From: a virus
Taxonomy: Duplodnaviria; Caudoviricetes
Virus record (IMG/VR): IMGVR_UViG_3300033067_000445
Span: 1 to 54,615 of that record
Length of the DNA: 54,615 bases
Direction: 5' to 3' (one strand)
In this document: piece after piece, positions 1 to 54,321 of the stretch
Layout of the letters: each line of letters opens with the position of its first letter
Numbering within the stretch: the stretch's first letter is position 1
Notes under the pieces: model-generated
Told to the model about the DNA's origin: nothing
The model's input: the letters and a program-made list of their open reading frames with translations, nothing else
Databases searched by the model: none
Position numbers and translations under genes: made by a program

Positions 1-329
1 TGCTTTACATTTTTCTCGGCTTTAGATTTTCTGCCGTTGCCCATAAAGTCGACAGCGGCGTCTTCCTTGGCCTTCAGTTTTGCAGCCTTCTCGTCTTCCT
101 TGGCTTGCTTGGCAGCGTTCTTTTCCGCTTCCTTGGCAGCTTTCTTGCCTTCAGCTTCAGCCTTCTTGGCAGCGACGGCAGCTTCTTTGTCAGCTTTCTT
201 CTTGGCAGCGGCTTCAGCTTTGGCGGTGGCCTTGGCTTCGGCTTCAGCGGCCTTCAGCTTCGCAGCGGTTTCGGCAGCGGCCTTTTGTTCTTCGGTTTGC
301 TCAGCGGGAGCAGCGGTCTTGGCATTCAT
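1..329 (-). CDS. Ala/Lys/Glu-rich early protein, N-terminal part (runs off the left edge; probably continues in 54430-54615)
   Basis: ATG at 329 with AAGGA upstream; open frame MNAKTAAPAEQTEEQKAAAETAAKLKAAEAEAK... to the window edge; sigma70-like promoter upstream. Confidence 0.75.
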   Translation of the reverse strand, partial: MNAKTAAPAEQTEEQKAAAETAAKLKAAEAEAKATAKAEAAAKKKADKEAAVAAKKAEAEGKKAAKEAEKNAAKQAKEDEKAAKLKAKEDAAVDFMGNGRKSKAEKNVK

Positions 330-389
330 GATGAAATCCTTCAGTGGGTGAGTTAATTGAACGGGAACGTCCTTGCGAACGCAGAACGC

Positions 390-418
390 ACTATAAGGGC
401 GCTCTTACCTGTATGCAA
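390..418 (-). promoter_or_regulatory. sigma70-like early promoter
   Basis: TTGCAT-17 nt-TATAGT on the minus strand. Confidence 0.7.
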
Positions 419-432
419 GAGGGTTCGTTTAG

Positions 433-609
433 TCAAACTGGAATGCGCGATTTTTGCCAATCGCCCAGCGCAGTTGATGAAGTGGTCTTCTTGATGTTAT
501 GTTCGGACTCGAGGGTGCTCATCATCTGCTTGCGTAGCGCGAGCACGGCCTTGACGTCAACAGGCTTACCCGCTGCACCCCACAGCTGATCCGCTACCGA
601 CCAGATCAC
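433..609 (-). pseudogene. C-terminal fragment of the early gene starting at 2143, separated from it by the 605-1631 insertion
   Basis: VIWSVADQLWGAAGKPV...WQKSRIPV* joins in frame to ...GGNRAVI when 605-1631 is removed. Confidence 0.8.
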
Positions 610-642
610 TGTACTTTTAGGGGGTATCCGTAATCCGTTGTT
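605..642 (+). repeat. 38-bp inverted repeat, left copy
   Basis: ATCACTGTACTTTTAGGGGGTATCCGTAATCCGTTGTT is the exact reverse complement of 1549-1586. Confidence 0.95.
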
Positions 643-652
643 GATGACGGAT

Positions 653-865
653 TTAAGACTTGTGCGCAATGAGCGCAGTCTTGATTTTCAAAAGCTCCCA
701 GAAAGCCGGGTGCATGGCTCGCGCGCCAGTCTCCCATTGTTGAAATGATCGACGGGACGTGTGCAGAGCCGTTGCACACCAGTCCTGAGCCGCAGTTATG
801 CCCAGCTCAGCATCAGCTTGCACGGACTCTCGGACCTGTTTAACCTGCTCTGGCGTAGGAGTCAT
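653..865 (-). CDS. XRE-type HTH regulator, Aca-like
   Basis: 70 aa, PTPEQVKQVRE...TSRRSFQQWETGARAMHPAFWELL; last gene of a small-gene operon; ATGA overlap with the upstream gene. Confidence 0.75.
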   Translation of the reverse strand: MTPTPEQVKQVRESVQADAELGITAAQDWCATALHTSRRSFQQWETGARAMHPAFWELLKIKTALIAHKS

Positions 866-1128
866 TGGTTCGCCAGCAAGTTCATTACATCCGTTTCCAG
901 TTGCGCGCGTCCCGCACTGACCTTTGGGTCATAGGGCTGGCCGGGCTTGGATGGGGCATCATGGGCCGCGCTGTAGCGGGCGTAGGGCATCTTGTGCTCT
1001 TGGTACTTGCGGCCACTGATGACGCTCTCGGGCGTGTATACCACAGTGCCGTCCCGGCGCTGGGTCAATTTCAGGCCGGTGTTGCGTCCGTCAATCAGGA
1101 TGCTGTCGCTGGTGTCGATTTGAAGCAT
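862..1128 (-). CDS. Small hypothetical protein (candidate anti-defence/Acr)
   Basis: 88 aa from the ATG at 1128 preceded by GGAG; directly upstream of the HTH gene. Confidence 0.7.
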   Translation of the reverse strand: MLQIDTSDSILIDGRNTGLKLTQRRDGTVVYTPESVISGRKYQEHKMPYARYSAAHDAPSKPGQPYDPKVSAGRAQLETDVMNLLANQ

Positions 1129-1167
1129 GGTGCTCTCCGAAATGCCCACTGTGGCGGGCGGGTTGAT

Positions 1168-1428
1168 TTACTTGGATGCGAGGGCCAGCAGGTCGGCGAA
1201 CAGCTTGATGCGCTTGCCTGCGGCTTGATTGATGACGCGCTCTGCGTCGTTGATAGTGTTGCCCATTTCAGAACGGTTCCGGTTCGAATTGACAGCCACG
1301 ATACGGATCGTGTCGCCGAAAGAATCAGCGGCCTGTTCCTCTGCCCAGACCTTTGTGGAACCGAAACCGTTGATGTAGATGCGGATTGCGCCAGTGGCTG
1401 GGTGAGTCCAAGTGCTGAATGTTGTCAT
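1168..1428 (-). CDS. Small hypothetical protein (candidate anti-defence/Acr)
   Basis: 86 aa, AAGGA RBS, first gene after the cassette promoter. Confidence 0.75.
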   Translation of the reverse strand: MTTFSTWTHPATGAIRIYINGFGSTKVWAEEQAADSFGDTIRIVAVNSNRNRSEMGNTINDAERVINQAAGKRIKLFADLLALASK

Positions 1429-1499
1429 GTTGTGATCCTTGTGGAACGCCCGGAATCTGCCGGGACTCAGAGGACTGCTTATTTGCTGTCCATGCTTGA

Positions 1500-1538
1500 A
1501 TTATACGCGCATTGCGCACAACATCAAGAATTATTTTT
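1500..1538 (-). promoter_or_regulatory. Strong sigma70-like promoter with palindromic operator and AT-rich UP element
   Basis: TTGATG-16 nt-TATAAT; palindrome GCGCATTGCGC (1507-1517) in the spacer; AAAAATAAT upstream. Confidence 0.75.
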
Positions 1539-1548
1539 CATAGCAATA

Positions 1549-1586
1549 AACAACGGATTACGGATACCCCCTAAAAGTACAGTGAT
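1549..1586 (-). repeat. 38-bp inverted repeat, right copy
   Basis: AACAACGGATTACGGATACCCCCTAAAAGTACAGTGAT. Confidence 0.95.
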
Positions 1587-1627
1587 GTACCGAAGCCGGG
1601 GTATATCCCCGGCTAGGGACATACGGA

Positions 1628-2143
1628 CTATATCACCGCACGATTGCCGCCGCTAGGGGCCGCGATCGGTTTAGCCTGTACGGTAGGAGCGGCCTGCACG
1701 CTTGCGGGCAGCACGGGGGCAACTGGTAAAGCTGCGCCCGGCTGTAGCGCCATGGGCTCTGGTTCGAAGAGTTCTTGCAGGCGGACAGGGGTCGTGGAGC
1801 CTTTCACGTATCGGTAGAAACCCTGATCCTCCATGCTGATCTTGCGTGCCTGTACTTCAACCTCGAAAGCGTTAAACACCGATTCGGGAAGAGCCATGCC
1901 TAGCGCCATCACGCTGCGAACGAGGTGATCCCGGCTGAATCCAATGTGGTCAACCCCTGCCGTGTTGCGGTGCAGGAGCTTCAATTCCAGGTCCGTGAAC
2001 CTCGAATAAGATGCCAAGTGGTCGACGGGGAAGATAGCGACCGCCGAGTGCGCCACTTCGATGTGGGCAAGGTTGCCCAGAGCGGTGTTGTTGAGGTGTT
2101 TGTATGCGAACACCATTTTGTCGCAGTTCACTAGAACGTACAT
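1628..2143 (-). pseudogene. N-terminal part of the interrupted early protein (171 aa as truncated; about 227 aa when rejoined)
   Basis: ORF stops 1 codon after the GTGAT junction; the Pro/Ala linker leads into the missing domain found at 433-609. Confidence 0.75.
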
Positions 2144-2150
2144 GAGCGAC

Positions 2151-2321
2151 TCATCCTAACAGATCAAAAATGTAATCGGGTTCGAGTCCGAAGTCTTCAT
2201 GAAGAAGCTCTTCAGGATCCTCACCTTGGGCGACACGCTCGCGAGCGTCCTGGACAGCTTCCTCAGCAGCCTCGCGAGTCATGTCATCCCGCTGCATAAG
2301 CACTTCTACGATCGTTTGCAT
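2151..2321 (-). CDS. Small acidic hypothetical protein
   Basis: MQTIVEVLMQRDDMTREAAEE...EDFGLEPDYIFDLL; AAGGA RBS. Confidence 0.75.
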   Translation of the reverse strand: MQTIVEVLMQRDDMTREAAEEAVQDARERVAQGEDPEELLHEDFGLEPDYIFDLLG

Positions 2322-2365
2322 AGTGGTTCCTTGTTGGCGGGGAGGGTGACTCCCGCACTGCTGAT

Positions 2366-3082
2366 TCACTTAGCTTGACGACCGCGGATACCATTGAATT
2401 TTCTCCAGACATAGAATTCGCAGGACACGTTATTCTTGTTCCAGCCGTGTGCTTCAGCAAGTGCGGGCAGCTCCTTGGCGGTGACGGTAGGCTGTGCATC
2501 GAATGCGGCCCACACTTGACCACACACCGTCCCAGACGAAGGGCGCGTCACGCCGTTTTGCTTTGGGCGATCCTTCTCGATGTTGTAACCCTTGCTGACG
2601 TTCTCGCGGGTGTAGCCTGTGCGGATTTCCTTTCCGGTGTTGGCGCTGTAAGTGGTGGAACAGTGGTGGCAGAACAAGCTCACGCCTTCGTTGGCCCAGG
2701 TCTGGTCGACTTCGGTGCTGCACTTCGGGCACTTATGGACGTTCGTATGGTTGTATCCTTCCAGCTTCTCGGTCTTTTCAACTGCCTTCGGTGCAGCCTG
2801 TTGGACACGCTTGCCGTCACGGACGACCGTCACGTTCTTAGGAGGTGCAGGAGGTGCAGGAGGATTGATCAGGTTAGCGAACACATTGCTGTGAGTCGGT
2901 GCAGGAGCAACAATTTCTTCAGCGACGGGTTCCTGCACAGCGACAGTGGCGGTGGCTGCGACCAGTGCAGCACGCATTCCGTCATTGTTCATCTTGCCGT
3001 AGTTCTTGACGCCGTGTTGCTTGCACGCTTCGCGGAGTTCCGTCTTGCCCATTGCGTCGAATTGGTTGTTTGTTGATTGCAT
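2366..3082 (-). CDS. Early protein: Rho-N/SAP-like N-terminus, zinc ribbon, conserved C-terminal paralogous domain
   Basis: MGKTELREACKQHGVKNYGKMN; CPKC...CHHC; NGVTRPSSGTVCGQVW...GWNKNNVSCEFYVWRKFNG; AGGAG RBS. Confidence 0.8.
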   Translation of the reverse strand: MQSTNNQFDAMGKTELREACKQHGVKNYGKMNNDGMRAALVAATATVAVQEPVAEEIVAPAPTHSNVFANLINPPAPPAPPKNVTVVRDGKRVQQAAPKAVEKTEKLEGYNHTNVHKCPKCSTEVDQTWANEGVSLFCHHCSTTYSANTGKEIRTGYTRENVSKGYNIEKDRPKQNGVTRPSSGTVCGQVWAAFDAQPTVTAKELPALAEAHGWNKNNVSCEFYVWRKFNGIRGRQAK

Positions 3083-12523: not shown

Positions 12524-14884
12524 TTATTTAAGGTCTGAGGGTAGATCCAGCACGCGGAAAGCCTTGCCGTGGAATCCGTGATCAGTCAGGAGTTTGTCTT
12601 TGGGGATTTCAACGATATAACCGCTATCAACCAGACTGCGAACAGTATCATCAAGCGCCTTTGATGCTCCGAATTTGTGTTGCTGGAAGGTCGGAACCCT
12701 CTGCGTTCGAATCTGGAGGTACTTACGGGGCACGATACCATCCTTCACCATGCTTGACGGGACGTTGTAACCCGTGCCCACCTTGCCTGCGATGTACTCA
12801 GCAATGAAGAATAGAATCTTGCGCTCCCGTGTGTGGTCATTGATACCGACGTCACCAGTCACCAGACGTCTTGTCATGATGGCAATGTCACGGCGCACCA
12901 CTTGCAGAGCCCAATCGACATATTCTGCATTGACTACAGGACTCTCTGGTCTGTCCGCAACTGCCAGCAATGCAGCAATTCGGCAAACCTTCAAGTGAGC
13001 ACGGTTCCACATCTGCCTCCAGGACTCGTCCGCAGTGCTATTGATCTGGATGTCGCATTCCTTGTCAAACGATTGCAGCATCTGCCGCGCCCGCTCGTCA
13101 AGCCCAACACCATACACCATGGACGCACCCTTCGCCACGACCGCTGTATGCACCACATAGAGCAGCTGATTGAGTTCTTCCGTGTTGAGGTTTGTCTTCG
13201 GGTTTTCGTTATGTGCAGGGCGCTCACCGTCGTATTCAATGACAATAAAGCGTGACAGAAAACCGTCTTCCATCATCGACTCAGTAAGCGACTCGTAGAA
13301 TGTGCCAGGGGTCGTTTCGCCAATCATACTATAGGCAACACCTGTCACAGACGCGACCGTCTTTTCCTTGTCGCTGTATCCAATACCGCCAACGACACTG
13401 GTCGACGATGACTTCTGATACAGGTTTGTCATGATGGTACGCAAAGAAGCGAGCGATCCGTCCCTGCCTTCTTCTGCCGCTAGGCGCTTCAGCTTGCGTC
13501 CCCACTCACCAGACACGTTCACAAACGACGGGTTGAACGCCACCGCCTTAGCAAGTGCAGGCCCTGACGCAAAGTCTGCAAAGTCCACAAACTCGGAAAT
13601 CTTGTTCCCGTTCGTTGTCAGGCCCATGCACTGATGGATGATCTTGCTGATCCCGCTGTGCATTGCTTCCTTACCGATAGCACTACGAGCGATGAGAATG
13701 ATATACAGGTTGAGGCCTGATTGCGGGATGTTCCACGTCTTACCGCACAGCCCAGCAAACAACCCGAGCGCAGACACAATGCCCACCTCCCGCACGGGAC
13801 GCGGTGCGGAGTCATAGATGTAGCGTGCAATGACGCCAACAAAGCCTGGAGGCCACGGGAGTTCTGCCGTTGGCTGCATACCTGCTGACGTGATAGCGCC
13901 CACGGGTGCCCGCGGTGCCTGTACTGGTGCAGCTTCCGCAGCGATCGCGGCCTGTGGGGCCCGCATATTCTGCAGCAATGCACCCGCCAACGCTTCACCG
14001 TGTTCTTCCGCTGCAATTTCCCGTGACTGCCTACCGCGAATGATCCGCAATGTGCGATTCAGGTAGACATCGTCCTTCGTTGCTTTGTCCCGCTTGCCCA
14101 AACCCGACAACCTGAACAACCTGCGGCACTGTGCATTCGACCGCGAGTGAAATGTAAACATGGACATGAGCGCCAAGTCTGCTTCCGACTGCGACGGGTA
14201 TCCCATAGCGGTCCAGTCTCCTTTGCACAGTTCATTGAACTTGTCAGCATTCACCGCATTCATTAGCATGGACAGGATCTCGTCGTCCTCAAGCTCTTCA
14301 CCGAACTCTTCTAGTTCAACGACGCTGTCCCTGTTCTTCCGTATCTCCTGCACCAGTAACTCAATGAGCTCCTGCTTCTCGCGCAATGGGCGGTCCAGGA
14401 TGGTGTCACCCGTGCAGACAATGAACCTCTCTTGTGAATACACTTCCACAAAGTCACGCCGGGCGCCTGCCCCGATCTGCGCCTTGATCCATATGTGCAA
14501 CCCTTGCCCCGATTGCGACCGCTCTGTGTAGCTGTCGAATGTGGTCATTATCATGCCGTGCCGCTCAATCGCGGTAGCCGGTGTCCACTTAGCAGGGTCT
14601 TTCTCGTTCGTTGCGTTCTTGACATCCAAGTCAATACAGCAGAACGGGTCAGCCTTAGCCAACACAAACCCGATCCCGAGTTTGTAGTGCCATGCGGCTT
14701 GGCACGCCATTTCGAATGACAACCATGTGGCAGGGTCAGTCGTACTGCCTGGGCGTAATTGTCCAAGTGAGTCCAGAGACGTCGGAACCTTCAAATCTCC
14801 CTTAGTGTCTGGTGACGCCAGGAGCCATTGTTTCGCGCTTTGCAGCTCCGCAGGGATGCGTCCCCATTGTGGGGTTTCCTTCAT
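12524..14884 (-). CDS. Primase/polymerase fused to a DUF3987-like helicase domain
   Basis: [42 protein letters not shown]. Confidence 0.85.
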
Positions 14885-50856: not shown

Positions 50857-51762
50857 TTAATGAGCAAGCCGAAGGAATTCAGCTCGCGCCTGCTCGTCGT
50901 CCTTGATAGCGCCACGAAGAGCTGTGGTCAGTGTGTGGTGTCCTTGCTGGCAGATGCCACGGGATTCCATGCAGAGGTGACGCGCCTTAATCAACACGCC
51001 GACGCCCACGGGTTGTAAGTGTTCCATGAGTGCATCTGCGATCTGGTCTGTCAGTCGCTCCTGCACTTGCAAACGACGGGCAAACATATCCGCAAGGCGT
51101 GACAATTTGCTCAAGCCTGCGATCTTACCGTTCGGGATGTAAGCGATGCTCACTGTGCCGAAGATAGGCGCCAAGTGGTGTTCGCAATGCGAATAGATGG
51201 GGATGTCCTTGACGATCACCATCTGGTCATATTTCTCTGCACCATCTTCGAACACCTTCAAGATGTCCTTTGCGTTCTTACCATAGCCACCGCACCAGTG
51301 GCGCCACGCTTTGGCGACCCGTGCAGGAGTTTCCAGGAGCCCTTCGCGGGTGGAATCTTCGCCGACGAATTGCAACAGACGGACAATGTTGTCTTCGATA
51401 GAACCTGCTCCATCTTGCTCCCAAGGAAACACGAGCCACTGATTGTGATAAGGGCCTTCCTCGCGCTTGTCGATGAGTGCAAAGAAAGGACGCTCAGGGT
51501 ACTGGTCGCAGTAACGCTCGCAAGTAGAACCGCTGTCGATCAAGTCGTCAATGAACAACTCCGCGTCAGCAGGGTTGTCAACGAGCAGCAAACCGGGCAC
51601 CAATGGGGCCAGCAGGTACGCAACAGGCACGCCGCCACGTGGTACTGCATACGCTGCCAAACGTCGCCCAGCGGGCCCGCTTGCGCCGTATGCCACGATT
51701 TGCTTTGCGAGTGCGGCGGCAAGTGTGCCGATTGTTTCATGGGTGAGGGTAATCTGTTTCAT
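50857..51762 (-). CDS. folE: GTP cyclohydrolase I with an N-terminal phosphoribosyltransferase-like domain
   Basis: C-term REGLLETPARV, CEHHLAP, GLSKL.R, RLQVQERLT, HLCMESRG; N-term VPRGG, FIDDLIDSGST, WLVFPWE. Confidence 0.92.
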   Translation of the reverse strand: MKQITLTHETIGTLAAALAKQIVAYGASGPAGRRLAAYAVPRGGVPVAYLLAPLVPGLLLVDNPADAELFIDDLIDSGSTCERYCDQYPERPFFALIDKREEGPYHNQWLVFPWEQDGAGSIEDNIVRLLQFVGEDSTREGLLETPARVAKAWRHWCGGYGKNAKDILKVFEDGAEKYDQMVIVKDIPIYSHCEHHLAPIFGTVSIAYIPNGKIAGLSKLSRLADMFARRLQVQERLTDQIADALMEHLQPVGVGVLIKARHLCMESRGICQQGHHTLTTALRGAIKDDEQARAEFLRLAH

Positions 51763-51772
51763 GTGACGGTCC

Positions 51773-52192
51773 TTAGAGTGAGAAAGATGCGCTGCATTTG
51801 CGGGTCTCTTCCACAATGCAATTGACGAGGGTGATGCCTGTGCCCGCAAGCTGCTGAGGAGCGATCACCTTGACCAGATGCTCAGCGACGTTTTCAGCAG
51901 TAGGGTTGAATGGCACAATGACCACAGACGGGTCGATGGTGATCAGTGACTGTGCAAGCGGGTCACCTTCCCAGATGAGCATCTTGTGATCCCAATTGTC
52001 TTCGAGCCACATGCACAGACGCGCCTTGATGTCGCTGAAGTCAATCACGCGCCCCACAGTGTCGAGCTTGTCAGCTTCGCAGTGGAAATGGACGCGGTAG
52101 TTATGTCCGTGAAGGTGACGACATTTGCCTTCGTGACCGTGAACACGGTGTCCGCAGGAAATGTCGTGATATCGTTGGGCTTGCCAGGTCAT
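51773..52192 (-). CDS. queD: 6-carboxy-tetrahydropterin synthase
   Basis: GHRV...CRHLHGHNY, IDFSDIK, NPTAENVA, VEET. Confidence 0.93.
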   Translation of the reverse strand: MTWQAQRYHDISCGHRVHGHEGKCRHLHGHNYRVHFHCEADKLDTVGRVIDFSDIKARLCMWLEDNWDHKMLIWEGDPLAQSLITIDPSVVIVPFNPTAENVAEHLVKVIAPQQLAGTGITLVNCIVEETRKCSASFSL

Positions 52193-53574
52193 TGCTTTTC
52201 TCCTTGTTGGCCGTCAGTATATTGAATGACTTCGGGCAGGTTGTTAATCTCAAACGCTTTGCGTCGCATGTAGCACGGTCCGCAAGTTCCGCAGTGCAGC
52301 TCACCGGCACGGTAGCAGCTCCACGTCAGGTCCATAGGTGCGCCCAATTGGTTGCCCAGCGCGACAATCTCATGCTTCATAAGGTTGCCAACAGGCATTA
52401 TCACACGCATCCGCTTTCCATCACCAACGGCGAAAGAAAGAAGGTCGTTGAAGCGTGCAATGAACTCAGGCTCGTTGTCAGGGTAGGCACCAGCTTCCTC
52501 AAGGTTGTTTCCAAGAACGATAGTGCTGATTCCGCGTGCCTCTGCAAAGGCTGTGGCAACACTTAACAGAAGCAAGTTCCGGGCAGGAACCCATTCGTGG
52601 GCAAACTCAGCACCAGCTTCACCGCCCGCGACCTTGCTGTCAGGGTCAAGCAACGGTGAGTCACCCTTTGAATAGACGTTCAGTGGGAACAGTGTCAGCT
52701 CCGCGTCTAGTGCTTCAGCGACCGCTTGCACCGCCTTCACTTCGGGGCCTTCTGCGCGACTACCGTACAGGAAGTGAATAAGGTGAACACCCATGCCCAG
52801 CGCCTGCTTCACATATGCAGCACTGACCACACTATCCAGGCCACCGCTACACACCACAAGAGCTCGTTCGTCTAGTCCCGGCTTGTAAAGCGAATCCGAA
52901 ACGATATCACCAGACGCGGTGAAGCGTGCAACGGTATAGGGCGTCAACATGCGGGGCGCCCATTGCGAAGGCAGGTAGTCCCGAGCACTTGCGAAGAAGT
53001 ACCCGTAAGGCGTGTCGACGTACCAGACAGGACGATAGTTCGCTGCGACGTACATGGTGTCGGTTTGTCCGTCAAAGGTAGCGAGAATCGCGAAGCTGCC
53101 TTTCAGTTTGCGCACCACTTCGGCAAAGCTCTCCAGCGTAGGCGGCAAGGGGGCCAGCTGCTCGGCGATCGCTGCGCTGTCAATGGTAGTGGGAAGGCTA
53201 CCCGTGCGAAGCGCCTTGTCGTTGGCGATGGTGCCATTATGCACGATAGTCCATGGGCCGTCTGTGTAGGGCTGCTGATCAGTGAGACGTTTCTCCAAGA
53301 CGAACTCGGTCGTGGGCTCAGCGCGAAGGTTCCCCACGACCACAGCAGAGCGGCAGGGTTTGAACAGGATAGGAGGGCGAACGCGGAAACCATCGCTTCG
53401 GGAGGTCTCACGGTAGGACTGAGACTCGTCTTCGCTGCTCGAGTTGATGACATACCCGCGACCGTCACGTCCACGCTCGTGGCTCTTGGTCCAGATGCTG
53501 TCCAAGATCACATTGACTTCTTCCATCTGGTTAGCGTCCAAACGACGCACCAGTGCTCCGACTATTGAACACAT
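52189..53574 (-). CDS. queC: Gat-QueC: class II glutamine amidotransferase fused to preQ0 synthase
   Basis: N-terminal MC, RGRDG, HNGTI; SGGLDS, VPARN, YPD, SCY...CGTCGPC. Confidence 0.93.
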   Translation of the reverse strand: MCSIVGALVRRLDANQMEEVNVILDSIWTKSHERGRDGRGYVINSSSEDESQSYRETSRSDGFRVRPPILFKPCRSAVVVGNLRAEPTTEFVLEKRLTDQQPYTDGPWTIVHNGTIANDKALRTGSLPTTIDSAAIAEQLAPLPPTLESFAEVVRKLKGSFAILATFDGQTDTMYVAANYRPVWYVDTPYGYFFASARDYLPSQWAPRMLTPYTVARFTASGDIVSDSLYKPGLDERALVVCSGGLDSVVSAAYVKQALGMGVHLIHFLYGSRAEGPEVKAVQAVAEALDAELTLFPLNVYSKGDSPLLDPDSKVAGGEAGAEFAHEWVPARNLLLLSVATAFAEARGISTIVLGNNLEEAGAYPDNEPEFIARFNDLLSFAVGDGKRMRVIMPVGNLMKHEIVALGNQLGAPMDLTWSCYRAGELHCGTCGPCYMRRKAFEINNLPEVIQYTDGQQGEKQ

Positions 53575-53577
53575 AGA

Positions 53578-54321
53578 TCACTCCATTCCGATGTATTTGT
53601 GGGTCTGCAATTGCAGAACGAAACCGTGTTGAATTACATTCACGACACACTCGTCCACGTTGAGCCTGTTCTGCCTGTCGTCCTTGTCATCGCAAGGTTG
53701 CAAATAGATTGGCCCTTTGTATGCTTCCGGAGGTCGCGCCAGGAACGGGTGGGCAGTGTGGTCAAGCGCACGTGAAGGCAGACCGTCATCCATGGTGTCG
53801 CCGCAGGTTGCGACGTACTTGAAAGCGCACGCAATGGCACCGATCACAGGATTCACTTTTCCGGTCTTGGGACTGCACACGACAAACACTGCATCACGAC
53901 GGGTCGTGTCTTTAGCGCAAAGCTCAAGGAATGCAATGTTAGGAGGTGCCAGCGTGCCGTTAGTTTCAATCTGAACGAAGAAACCCGCTTTGAGCAAAGC
54001 CTCGCACAGCGGAAAGATGTCTTGCCGAAAAGGTTCACCGCCTGTAATGACCACGAGCCTGAGGCCTGATCCCTGCGACCATGTCTGCGCCGCTCGCACC
54101 AGCATGTCGACTGGAATGCGCTCGCGAGTCGACGTGTAGTCTGTGTCGCATTTAGGACATTGGAGGTTGCACCCTGCAAGGCGAATGAACAGTGCAGGGA
54201 ATCCGGTGAAGGGGCCTTCACCTTGAATGGTACGGAAGACGGAATGTACGTCTAGCGCACCGTCGGCAGGGGTGTCAAGTCCTGGGACTTGTCGTTTTTC
54301 AATGGGTTGATTGTTCATCAA
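53578..54321 (-). CDS. queE: 7-carboxy-7-deazaguanine synthase (radical SAM)
   Basis: TIQGEG, GCNLQCPKCDT, TGGEP, IETNG, LQTHK. Confidence 0.95.
   Translation of the reverse strand: MMNNQPIEKRQVPGLDTPADGALDVHSVFRTIQGEGPFTGFPALFIRLAGCNLQCPKCDTDYTSTRERIPVDMLVRAAQTWSQGSGLRLVVITGGEPFRQDIFPLCEALLKAGFFVQIETNGTLAPPNIAFLELCAKDTTRRDAVFVVCSPKTGKVNPVIGAIACAFKYVATCGDTMDDGLPSRALDHTAHPFLARPPEAYKGPIYLQPCDDKDDRQNRLNVDECVVNVIQHGFVLQLQTHKYIGME

Follow-up and report, generated by a model that had tools for sequence, protein, structure and literature searches.

MIC231 of the Bacillus cereus group, a derivative of IS231, belongs to the mobile insertion cassettes (MICs), which carry genes other than a transposase between terminal inverted repeats (IRs) of insertion-sequence type, duplicate their target on insertion and are mobilised in trans. 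Other described systems that resemble the locus studied here are transposons of the Tn3 type, whose signature is a 38-bp IR with a 5-bp duplication; the mycobacteriophage mobile elements (MPMEs), which are small (about 440 bp, with IRs of 11 bp and one ORF), occur in phage genomes and are exposed by relatives lacking them; and the morons of phages, accessory genes that bring a promoter of their own. Transposable elements as such are uncommon in phage genomes. With respect to the ISL3 family, PMC3735179 describes imperfect 24-bp IRs for ISPpu12, and reports that composite transposons flanked by it are bordered on the outside by direct repeats of 8 bp.

The window, by which I mean the whole stretch of 54,615 nucleotides of Caudoviricetes DNA under analysis, contains an insert of 1027 bp (605-1631) that splits a phage gene of the phrog_7864 family, encoding 227 aa, into a fragment of 171 aa and a remnant of 56 codons, both on the minus strand. 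The 5' fragment (1628-2143) ends in ...GGNRAVI and matches phrog_7864 with E 2.7e-27 (E 5.4e-50 for the intact homologue P0002); the insert junction crosses or contains its last two codons and stop. The 3' remnant (433-604) comprises the final 56 codons (IWSVADQLW...SRIPV) and the stop, within the listed ORF 433-669, where VIWSVADQLW is found, and it aligns to the C-terminus of the intact 227-aa P0002 as well as to L005. Among 150 candidates, 15 homologues of the split protein were found at E <= 0.001, one of them the window's own; 12 of the other 14 measure 227-250 aa and two are shorter (142 and 170 aa), and ...AVIW... is uninterrupted in all five whose sequences were examined. In two related phage contigs, L004 and L005, the gene is intact and a lone GTGAT stands at the insertion site (in L005 the empty site reads GCGGTGATCTGGTCGG, with one GTGAT). 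The window's flanks map in both contigs to 4521-4508 and 4512-4494 and overlap by exactly 5 nt, and the ATCAC at 1632-1636 is, by this comparison, the phage's own pentamer, which on the minus strand reads as the one GTGAT of the empty site. An earlier note on this DNA had claimed a precise insertion and had proposed a search for intact homologues of the rejoined protein; the relatives bear out the former and show the insert to be derived, and the 12 full-length proteins answer the latter. A blastn search of 400-2200 against phages gave no match.

A precise interruption with the reading frame preserved across the insert would also suit a self-splicing intron or a like element whose removal from the RNA makes the gene whole again. 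However, the insert holds three ORFs and a promoter of its own, the same cassette lies elsewhere in intergenic DNA with target duplications (see below), and for neither strand of 300-2000 was an Rfam match obtained at E <= 1. Group I introns have a U before the 5' cut and a G at the 3' end; read by eye, none of the six cut registers yields the end bases of group I or group II introns, and I consider the probability of an intron negligible.

The structure could further be suspected to be a mis-join of phage and host reads, as the window is a metagenome-assembled contig and a de Bruijn graph cannot tell which way round the segment inside an IR lies. Contigs were compared for four of the 24 listed metagenome runs (X1, X7, X13 and X24); the shares listed for the other 20 (0.19-0.39) are given no weight as a sign of spread. 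Separate Logan unitigs of X24 cross the two outer junctions (records 245-634 and 1557-2600, depths 6.35 and 9.98), at depths near those of the phage flanks, and a 38-nt unitig at 1549-1586 has a depth of 23.8 against 6-10 in its neighbours, more than twofold. A second assembler, perhaps on the same sample, thus agrees; as 0.99 of the sampled words are present in X24, which may be the window's source sample, this supports the assembly and does not count as an independent sample. An assembly artefact, which the earlier note had listed as a condition to check, is therefore very improbable. Positions 88-174 of the window are without cover in X24. In the contigs of the four runs no empty-site, circular or inverted joints were reported, though contigs cannot show absence.

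At the ends of the insert, two arms of 41 nt (605-645 and 1546-1586) are 98% complementary with one mismatch. Their perfect 38-nt part (605-642 versus 1586-1549) and the pentamer ATCAC at 605-609 and 1632-1636 were described correctly in the earlier note; the reverse complement GTGAT lies at 1582-1586. A 31-mer of the arm has two copies in the window and occurs in none of 100 shuffles. Between the right arm and the phage's pentamer stand 45 nt (1587-1631) that are missing from the L005 empty site and belong to neither cassette nor phage; they contain a hairpin, GCCGGGG-TATAT-CCCCGGC, at 1596-1614 (DNA fold z-score -4.1, with 0 of 200 shuffles folding as well).

The long arms are composite, as becomes apparent from other copies of the element. 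Contigs from three other metagenomes (X1, X7 and X13) match 622-1569 at more than 99% and then diverge; the left-hand limit is 622 in all three, and the match ends at 1569 in X1 and X7, X13 being matched over its covered part. In the X7 contig (2529 nt) there are 8 differences in 948 matched bases. In this context an 8-bp direct repeat, AAATCTTA, ends the left flank and begins the right one, and the flanks of the three contigs are identical, so that they represent one insertion and not three. A 35-kb phage contig (L026, 96% complete by CheckV) carries an element of 724 bp with a perfect 8-bp duplication, GAAAAAAC, which keeps the IR, the promoter and a helix-turn-helix (HTH) gene and differs from the window's in its two cargo ORFs. 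An element of 713 bp in a bacterial MAG (L022) has flanks ATTGAAGC and ATTGAAGT, alike at 7 of 8 positions, and a MazF-type toxin pair as cargo (PemK/MazF, E 8.5e-11); in L025 a single cassette end lies at the contig edge. Over the seven ends compared, these included, the 24-bp IR is identical at 20-24 of 24 positions. In the window the left terminal IR (GGGTATCCG...GTTGAT) occupies 622-645 on the plus strand, recurring in L026, L022 and L025, and the right one, 23/24 identical to it, 1546-1569 on the minus strand.

As a 24-bp IR bounds elements with differing cargo and the matches stop at 622 and 1569, the mobile unit, judged by these comparisons of sequence, is a 948-bp mobile insertion cassette (622-1569) without a transposase. 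It has IS-type terminal IRs, non-transposase genes inside, and independent insertions with target-site duplications elsewhere, and is accordingly not a new class of element; it fits the known category of MICs. It differs from the described MICs in that its ends are of ISL3 and not of IS4/IS231 type, in that the family pairs an exchangeable cargo slot with a fixed chassis, whose promoter and HTH gene lie at opposite ends, and in that phage contigs, namely the window, L026 and L068, make up three of the six places with such ends. The earlier note's suggestion that the repeats might flank variable cargo elsewhere is borne out by L026 and L022, for the 24-bp ends.

What remains of each long arm lies outside this unit. 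On the left it is a 17-nt extension (605-621, ATCACTGTACTTTTAGG), the first 5 nt of which are the left ATCAC. Reverse-complementing 1570-1586 (CCTAAAAGTACAGTGAT), the first 17 nt of a foreign right flank, yields exactly this extension. The 8 nt flanking the window's cassette, CTTTTAGG and CCTAAAAG, are mirrored and not direct, and hence no duplication is present. The 31-mer from the long arm and a 22-mer of the spacer were not found in viral_contigs or genome_contigs, neither outer arm nor spacer had a copy among 401 genomes from the likely host order, 1540-1640 gave nothing by blastn against plasmids and phages at E <= 10, and outer arm and spacer have no other copy within the window.

These results bear on the proposal that the whole 1027-bp unit, with its 38-41-bp IRs and 45-bp spacer, is mobile through a trans-acting recombinase or transposase at ATCAC, and that the IR-spacer-IR junction of an excised circle forms an att-like site. 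The insertion is precise and has a 5-bp direct repeat, the pentamer doubles as the tip of the long IR, and the spacer hairpin is strong. However, the homology of other copies stops 17 nt inside each long arm and is followed there by 8-bp duplications, the outer parts recur in none of the collections just named, 610-1631 does not have ends that form an inverted repeat, and a recombinase is present neither in the insert nor among the scanned ORFs of the window. I regard this proposal as improbable. The 38-bp repeats thus fail as functional ends, and ATCAC as a recombination core, both of which the earlier note had favoured, since other copies are bounded by 24-bp ends and 8-bp repeats; and as the outer 17 nt and the spacer are matched nowhere else, nothing supports its att-like site or a site-specific recombinase. 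A site-specific integrative element was rejected on the same two grounds, the lack of a recombinase and of recurring outer ends and spacer.

Several named systems were likewise set aside. The apparent 38-bp IR with a 5-bp repeat mimics Tn3, and the cassette resembles Tn3-type derivatives in being non-autonomous, IR-bounded and passenger-carrying; however, its real ends measure 24 bp and go with 8-bp duplications, the 38-bp arms are confined to the window's copy, and the right arm is separated from the 5-bp repeat. A single-strand element of the IS200/IS605 type with GTGAT as cleavage site was rejected by eye because the subterminal hairpins are dissimilar and copies bearing target-site duplications argue against it. 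For Xer-dependent elements (IMEX), the match of the HTH protein to NF040522 (XafT-type activator) reaches 21.2 bits, far short of the cut-off of 70, the target is a coding sequence and not dif, and no dif-like 28-mer was seen by eye. The likeness to MPMEs drawn in the earlier note is only loose, as the cassette measures 948 bp, has 24-bp ISL3-like IRs and a three-gene operon, and occurs in bacterial MAGs as well.

The ends point towards ISL3. ISPpu12 (3372 bp; PF01610 match with E 5.9e-69), with its IR sequences taken directly from pWW0, shares 17/24 positions with the cassette IR at its left end and 16/24 at the other. An element of Paucibacter soli (L033; 3811 bp, ISL3 transposase with E 6.8e-62) shares 15-17/24, and an unrelated ISL3 copy 7-9/24. 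An identity of 16-17/24 is modest, since in the window's 109,184 24-mers four reach 16/24 with the ISPpu12 IR, of which two are the cassette ends and two are chance matches. Both reference elements have 24-bp IRs that start with GGGTA, as in the cassette, and the ISPpu12 IRs end with GTTGAT, as the cassette's do; the interior of the IR differs. Elements of this kind make 8-bp duplications (CTGAATTG in P. soli; the pWW0 copy has none, with flanks TCTTAAAT and AAAATTGA) and carry passenger genes including toxin-antitoxin pairs, in P. soli a HepT and nucleotidyltransferase pair. A further link is provided by L068, the third phage contig, where a gene is 94% identical to the final 31 aa of the cassette's HTH protein, and the IR behind this HTH-like gene is 23/24 identical to the P. 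soli ISL3 IR. The cassette thus shows two traits of ISPpu12-like ISL3 elements, IRs of about 24 bp resembling those of transposase-bearing members and, in other copies, the 8-bp target duplication. However, PF01610 (DDE_Tnp_ISL3) is lacking in all four phage records, the window included, and since the cassette has no ISL3 transposase I do not class it with the ISL3 insertion sequences themselves; it is probably a transposase-less derivative of one, in which this lack is to be expected.

The earlier note had seen no transposase or recombinase among the three ORFs of the insert and no integrase elsewhere, and both statements stand: the insert's ORFs match no such family in Pfam, PHROGs, NCBIfam or PADLOC, and neither transposase nor integrase was found among the 32 scanned window ORFs of at least 150 aa (64 listed). 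Its general explanation, a non-autonomous element moved in trans, is of the right kind. By the normal route, a host DDE transposase of the ISL3 family would move the cassettes in trans, recognising the 24-bp ends and making the 8-bp target duplications that the other copies display. No autonomous partner with matching IRs was found in genome_contigs or viral_contigs with an exact 19-mer or a degenerate 21-mer, which retrieved only cassettes and chance matches in coding DNA (L023 and L024 with the 19-mer and L041 with the 21-mer lie within ordinary genes), and a 24-mer with up to 3 mismatches occurred in none of 201 genomes of the P. soli family. Three ISL3 copies considered as partners (L032, L035 and L036, in G403 and G002) have, unlike L033, no cassette-like IR within 8-9 mismatches, and the own IRs of L035 are unrelated to that of the cassette. 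Matches to a relaxed IR pattern in G403 and G404 fell inside a conserved ORF of 829 aa, Lon-like by eye. A lone cassette-type end (L039) adjoins a TonB receptor gene.

The genes of the cassette form an operon on the minus strand. Its promoter, of sigma-70 type (TTGATG-16-TATAAT, 1500-1527), agrees at 10 of 12 positions, is the sole site within 400-1800 in the promoter scan and is also kept in the L026 element; the palindrome GCGCAATGCGC in its spacer is a putative operator. In the 5' leader of the operon a hairpin (1448-1466, GTCCCGGCAGATTCCGGGC on the minus strand) is identical in the window, L007 and L019, the upstream sequences of which otherwise differ. The first cargo gene, ORF86 (1168-1428, 86 aa), has 26 unnamed homologues and no family match in Pfam, PHROGs, NCBIfam or PADLOC, barring one NCBIfam match far below cut-off (E 0.089, 12.1 bits against 300); its model has a pLDDT of 93 and no PDB or BFVD match at E <= 0.001 in Foldseek, and the protein atlas offered nothing usable. 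The second, ORF95 (862-1128; 88 aa counted from the ATG behind GGAGAG), has 46 unnamed homologues and no family in the same four collections; its AlphaFold2 model (pLDDT 92) found nothing in the PDB with Foldseek at E <= 0.001, and its top score in the protein atlas, 0.76, is to an unnamed viral cluster. The last gene (653-865) encodes the HTH protein of 70 aa, which belongs with the promoter to the conserved chassis: family matches are weak (HTH_31, E 0.044; phrog_955, E 0.0069), and 61 of the 70 residues are identical in its L026 counterpart. It probably represses the cassette promoter. Relatives of the cargo pair lie free, without IRs, in phage or prophage loci (L007, L008, L009 and L019-L021). 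As a self-contained transcription unit of small accessory genes the cassette resembles a moron, but it is packaged between transposon ends and interrupts a gene instead of lying between genes.

As to how this copy reached the phage gene, I propose that the insert consists of the 948-bp cassette and 79 bp of accompanying foreign DNA, captured by snap-back copying and microhomology. The setting would be phage replication inside a host that carries the cassette. The growing minus strand would leave the phage template just past GTGAT and copy donor DNA through the cassette; at the far cassette end it would snap back on the complementary terminal repeat, copy 17 nt of its own flank until a second GTGAT is reached, and re-anneal through these 5 nt to the phage pentamer left earlier. 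The stretch 1570-1586 would then be the template of the mirrored left extension, and a single snap-back path would explain at once why the IR has grown from 24 to 41 bp, why a 5-bp direct repeat is present and why the insert is asymmetric. In support of such a capture, the window's copy has no duplication, its left flank mirrors the right over 17 nt, 45 further donor bases follow on the right, the outer sequences recur in no collection searched, the empty site holds one pentamer, and both phage junctions lie at the same pentamer; a true 5-bp target duplication, however, would also look like a 5-bp direct repeat. As no donor for the right flank (62 nt) turned up in the collections searched, the order of the template switches and the origin of the mirror, in the donor or during capture, are inferred from this one structure. 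I put the probability of the ISL3 derivation and the capture taken together at roughly 60%.

Alternatively, a miniature element of about 79 bp with two hairpins could have entered the phage gene with a 5-bp duplication, and the 948-bp cassette could later have transposed into the first of these hairpins, at its tip. Were the cassette removed, what lies outside it would indeed be a perfect palindrome of 17+17 nt followed by a second hairpin and flanked by 5-bp direct repeats, and other cassette copies lie in A/T-rich sites beside hairpins. However, such an insertion should have left an 8-bp direct duplication, whereas CTTTTAGG and CCTAAAAG are mirror images, impossible from a palindromic target; moreover, no free miniature element occurs in any collection searched, and the empty site of L004 and L005 is clean and without one. 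I therefore think a nested insertion unlikely.

The gain of small accessory operons by phages is usually inferred from mosaic boundaries alone. Here a defined vehicle is seen, with 24-bp ends of identical type and a promoter-regulator chassis around cargo that differs across phages and bacteria. It is conceivable, though I suggest it tentatively, that these cassettes constitute an undescribed family of ISL3-type "moron shuttles", transposase-less and built of a fixed chassis (24-bp ends, operator-bearing promoter, HTH repressor) with an open slot, in which toxin-antitoxin pairs and two-gene modules that also occur free in prophages might be swapped, and that they may move between bacteria and phages, including the phage of the window. 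As the vehicle is visible and one cargo pair lies free in phage and prophage loci, the exchange of cargo between host, prophage and phage is directly testable, and it is at issue here for an apparently virulent phage. If the proposed capture is true, the window's copy records the remaking of an element, in which a snap-back error lengthened the repeats from 24 to 41 bp and the added, hairpin-bearing end would be raw material for an element with new ends. This copy would then keep both junctions of a capture other than by transposition, a rare readable example of microhomology and snap-back in phage DNA. The cassette family as a whole could serve in the search for new small genes of phage-host interaction.

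The 1027-bp insert at 605-1631 lies within a phage gene of the phrog_7864 family. Its inverted repeat arms (605-645 and 1546-1586) agree at 98% over 41 nt and are perfect over 38 nt, as the earlier note had described, and a 31-mer from the arm occurs twice in the window, against 0 of 100 shuffles. The pentamer ATCAC is likewise real, at 605-609 and 1632-1636, with its complement at 1582-1586. On the minus strand, a 5' fragment of the split gene (1628-2143, 171 aa) ends in GGNRAVI, and the list of open reading frames also holds, on this strand, one of 78 aa with a TTG start (433-669), which contains VIWSVADQLW and, from inside the cassette just downstream of its HTH gene, continues across the left repeat and into what is left of the phage gene's 3' part. 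The remnant could be expressed as a predicted fusion, by read-through from the cassette operon. Of 150 candidate homologues, 15 matched at E <= 0.001, the window's own protein included; the other 14 proteins measure 227-250 aa in 12 cases and are shorter in two, and AVIW is unbroken in all five intact homologues fetched, so that the rejoined protein proposed earlier does have intact counterparts. Two related phage contigs, L004 and L005, encode an 89% identical protein from an uninterrupted site; in L005 this reads GCGGTGATCTGGTCGG, with a single pentamer, and the window's flanks mapped on either contig overlap by exactly 5 nt. Given the intact homologues, the single-pentamer empty site and this overlap, the insert is derived and precise over its 1027 bp, and it splits one gene. 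Both outer junctions are spanned by unitigs of metagenome run X24, possibly the source sample of the window, in which the unitig of the repeat is more than twice as deep as those beside it.

The earlier note had taken the whole insert for the mobile unit, but that unit is shorter. When four metagenome runs were compared with window 1-2600, the match of contigs from X1, X7 and X13 was confined to 622-1569, the sequence beyond being unlike the window; the X7 contig (2529 nt) shows 8 differences over the 948 bases matched. In these contigs AAATCTTA ends the sequence before 622 and begins the sequence after 1569, which is an 8-bp target duplication. As the flanks are common to all three runs, I count them as one further insertion only. 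Scans with the inner repeat located further copies. In L026, a phage contig of 35 kb (96% complete), an element of 724 bp is bordered left and right by GAAAAAAC; the MAG contig L022 has one of 713 bp, with flanks that agree at 7/8 positions; and at the edge of contig L025 there is a single element end. The remaining matches lay in ordinary genes or were lone ends. At 69-1500 of L027 (= L025, a MAG contig), the cassette end is located directly downstream of a Mrr-type restriction endonuclease gene and, by eye, inside a stretch whose translation resembles a DDE transposase N-terminus.

The elements of the window and L026 share a common chassis. One end (about 105 bp) contains the inverted repeat together with the promoter TTGATG-16-TATAAT, which includes the palindrome GCGCAATGCGC; at the opposite end (about 250 bp) are the gene for a 70-aa HTH protein (61/70 identical) and the other inverted repeat. 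The slot between them is occupied by ORF86 and ORF95 in the window and by two unrelated small ORFs in L026. In the L022 element, which lacks the promoter/HTH chassis, a 73-aa ORF is followed by the gene of a PemK/MazF toxin (E 8.5e-11). Variable cargo between the repeats, which the earlier note proposed to look for, is seen with the inner 24-bp repeat (L026, L022) and not with the outer arm and the spacer, of which no other copy was found anywhere searched. Free of inverted repeats, the cargo pair of the window is present elsewhere too: in L019 and L020 at 92% nucleotide identity next to ORFs that look terminase-like by eye, in L007 at 67-73% amino-acid identity beside a LexA-like ORF (by eye), and, in more distant form, in a MAG of Roseateles and a contig of Paucibacter. 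Judging from these loci, the hosts would belong to the Burkholderiales. ORF86 and ORF95 gave no match in the family search, except for an NCBIfam match of ORF86 far below cut-off, and have 26 and 46 unnamed homologues, respectively. Their predicted folds are confident (pLDDT 93 and 92), with no significant structural match for either model; for ORF86 this includes BFVD.

The window is a 54,615-bp IMG/VR virus record with a completeness estimate of 90%. Among its 32 ORFs of at least 150 aa scanned, of 64 listed, none is a transposase or integrase, in agreement with the earlier reading. The scanned ORFs include helicase, ligase, ThyX, primase-polymerase, terminase, portal and tail genes, and also a 7-deazaguanine synthesis set on the minus strand (50857-54321; GTP cyclohydrolase I, a fusion of a QueC domain and a glutamine amidotransferase, and a radical SAM protein), which suggests DNA modification by this phage. 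The primase-polymerase type replication protein (12524-14884, minus strand, 786 aa) combines a DUF3987 domain with an NrS-1 polymerase helix-bundle domain. The open-ended ORF at 3-329 (minus strand, 109 aa) is built almost wholly from repeats of Ala, Lys and Glu; in L005, a gene of the same kind comes after the uninterrupted phrog_7864 gene. Positions 88-174 are without contig cover in X24.

The ends of the cassette resemble those of ISL3 elements. No ISL3 transposase is encoded in the insert, elsewhere in the window or in three further phage records. ISPpu12, an ISL3 family member on pWW0 (3372 bp, PF01610 transposase, E 5.9e-69), has 24-bp inverted repeats, described as imperfect (PMC3735179), and composite transposons flanked by it are described with 8-bp direct repeats at their edges (PMC3735179). 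The cassette repeat is identical to the two ISPpu12 repeats at 17/24 and 16/24 positions, to those of a 3811-bp Paucibacter soli ISL3 element at 15-17/24, and to an unrelated ISL3 copy at 7-9/24; as a control, 4 of 109,184 window 24-mers reach 16/24 with the ISPpu12 repeat, and two of these four are the cassette ends. The copy of ISPpu12 on pWW0 (L060 3398-6769) has 8-nt flanks TCTTAAAT and AAAATTGA, with no matching duplication; near its right end, part of the repeat recurs internally. The P. soli element (L061 2505-6315, G002:C16) lies in an 8-bp duplication, CTGAATTG, and encodes, next to the transposase, a HepT-like RNase and a nucleotidyltransferase, as well as an ORF of 515 aa without family. 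A third phage contig, L068 (IMG/VR, 22,873 bp), starts inside an element (1-127), the rest being cut off; it holds the last 31 aa of a cassette-type HTH gene (94% identical), followed by a repeat matching that of the P. soli element at 23/24, a combination that forms the strongest link to ISL3. Scans for the window's own type of repeat found no transposase-bearing element.

The copy in the window lacks a target duplication; its 8-nt flanks, CTTTTAGG and CCTAAAAG, mirror each other, and the mirror extends 17 nt and stops exactly at the pentamer. Beyond it, on the right side, are 45 further foreign bases (1587-1631) with a strong hairpin; the donor of the captured DNA was not found. Insertion of the cassette into an earlier palindromic insert in the phage gene fails as an explanation, because a palindromic target cannot yield mirrored flanks and an 8-bp direct duplication together. 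From this one structure I infer that copy-choice during phage replication would be the simplest path to all features. The minus strand would quit the phage template after GTGAT, copy donor DNA through the cassette, snap back at the far 24-nt repeat onto its own complementary repeat, copy 17 nt of its own flank as far as the second GTGAT, and re-anneal to the phage pentamer left earlier. DDE transposases leave a 3'-OH exactly at the end of their element, so that an abortive nick by such an enzyme may account for the mirror beginning at exactly this point.

What the earlier note observed is confirmed, and its interpretation holds in part. The non-autonomous nature proposed there stands; the 38-bp repeats, the 45-bp spacer and the 5-bp repeat are best read as traces left by an unusual capture and not as an att site. 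The element belongs to the non-autonomous mobile insertion cassettes and is of ISL3 type. Elements of this kind are already known; this variant, with its promoter-regulator chassis and exchangeable cargo, is new and turned up repeatedly in phages.
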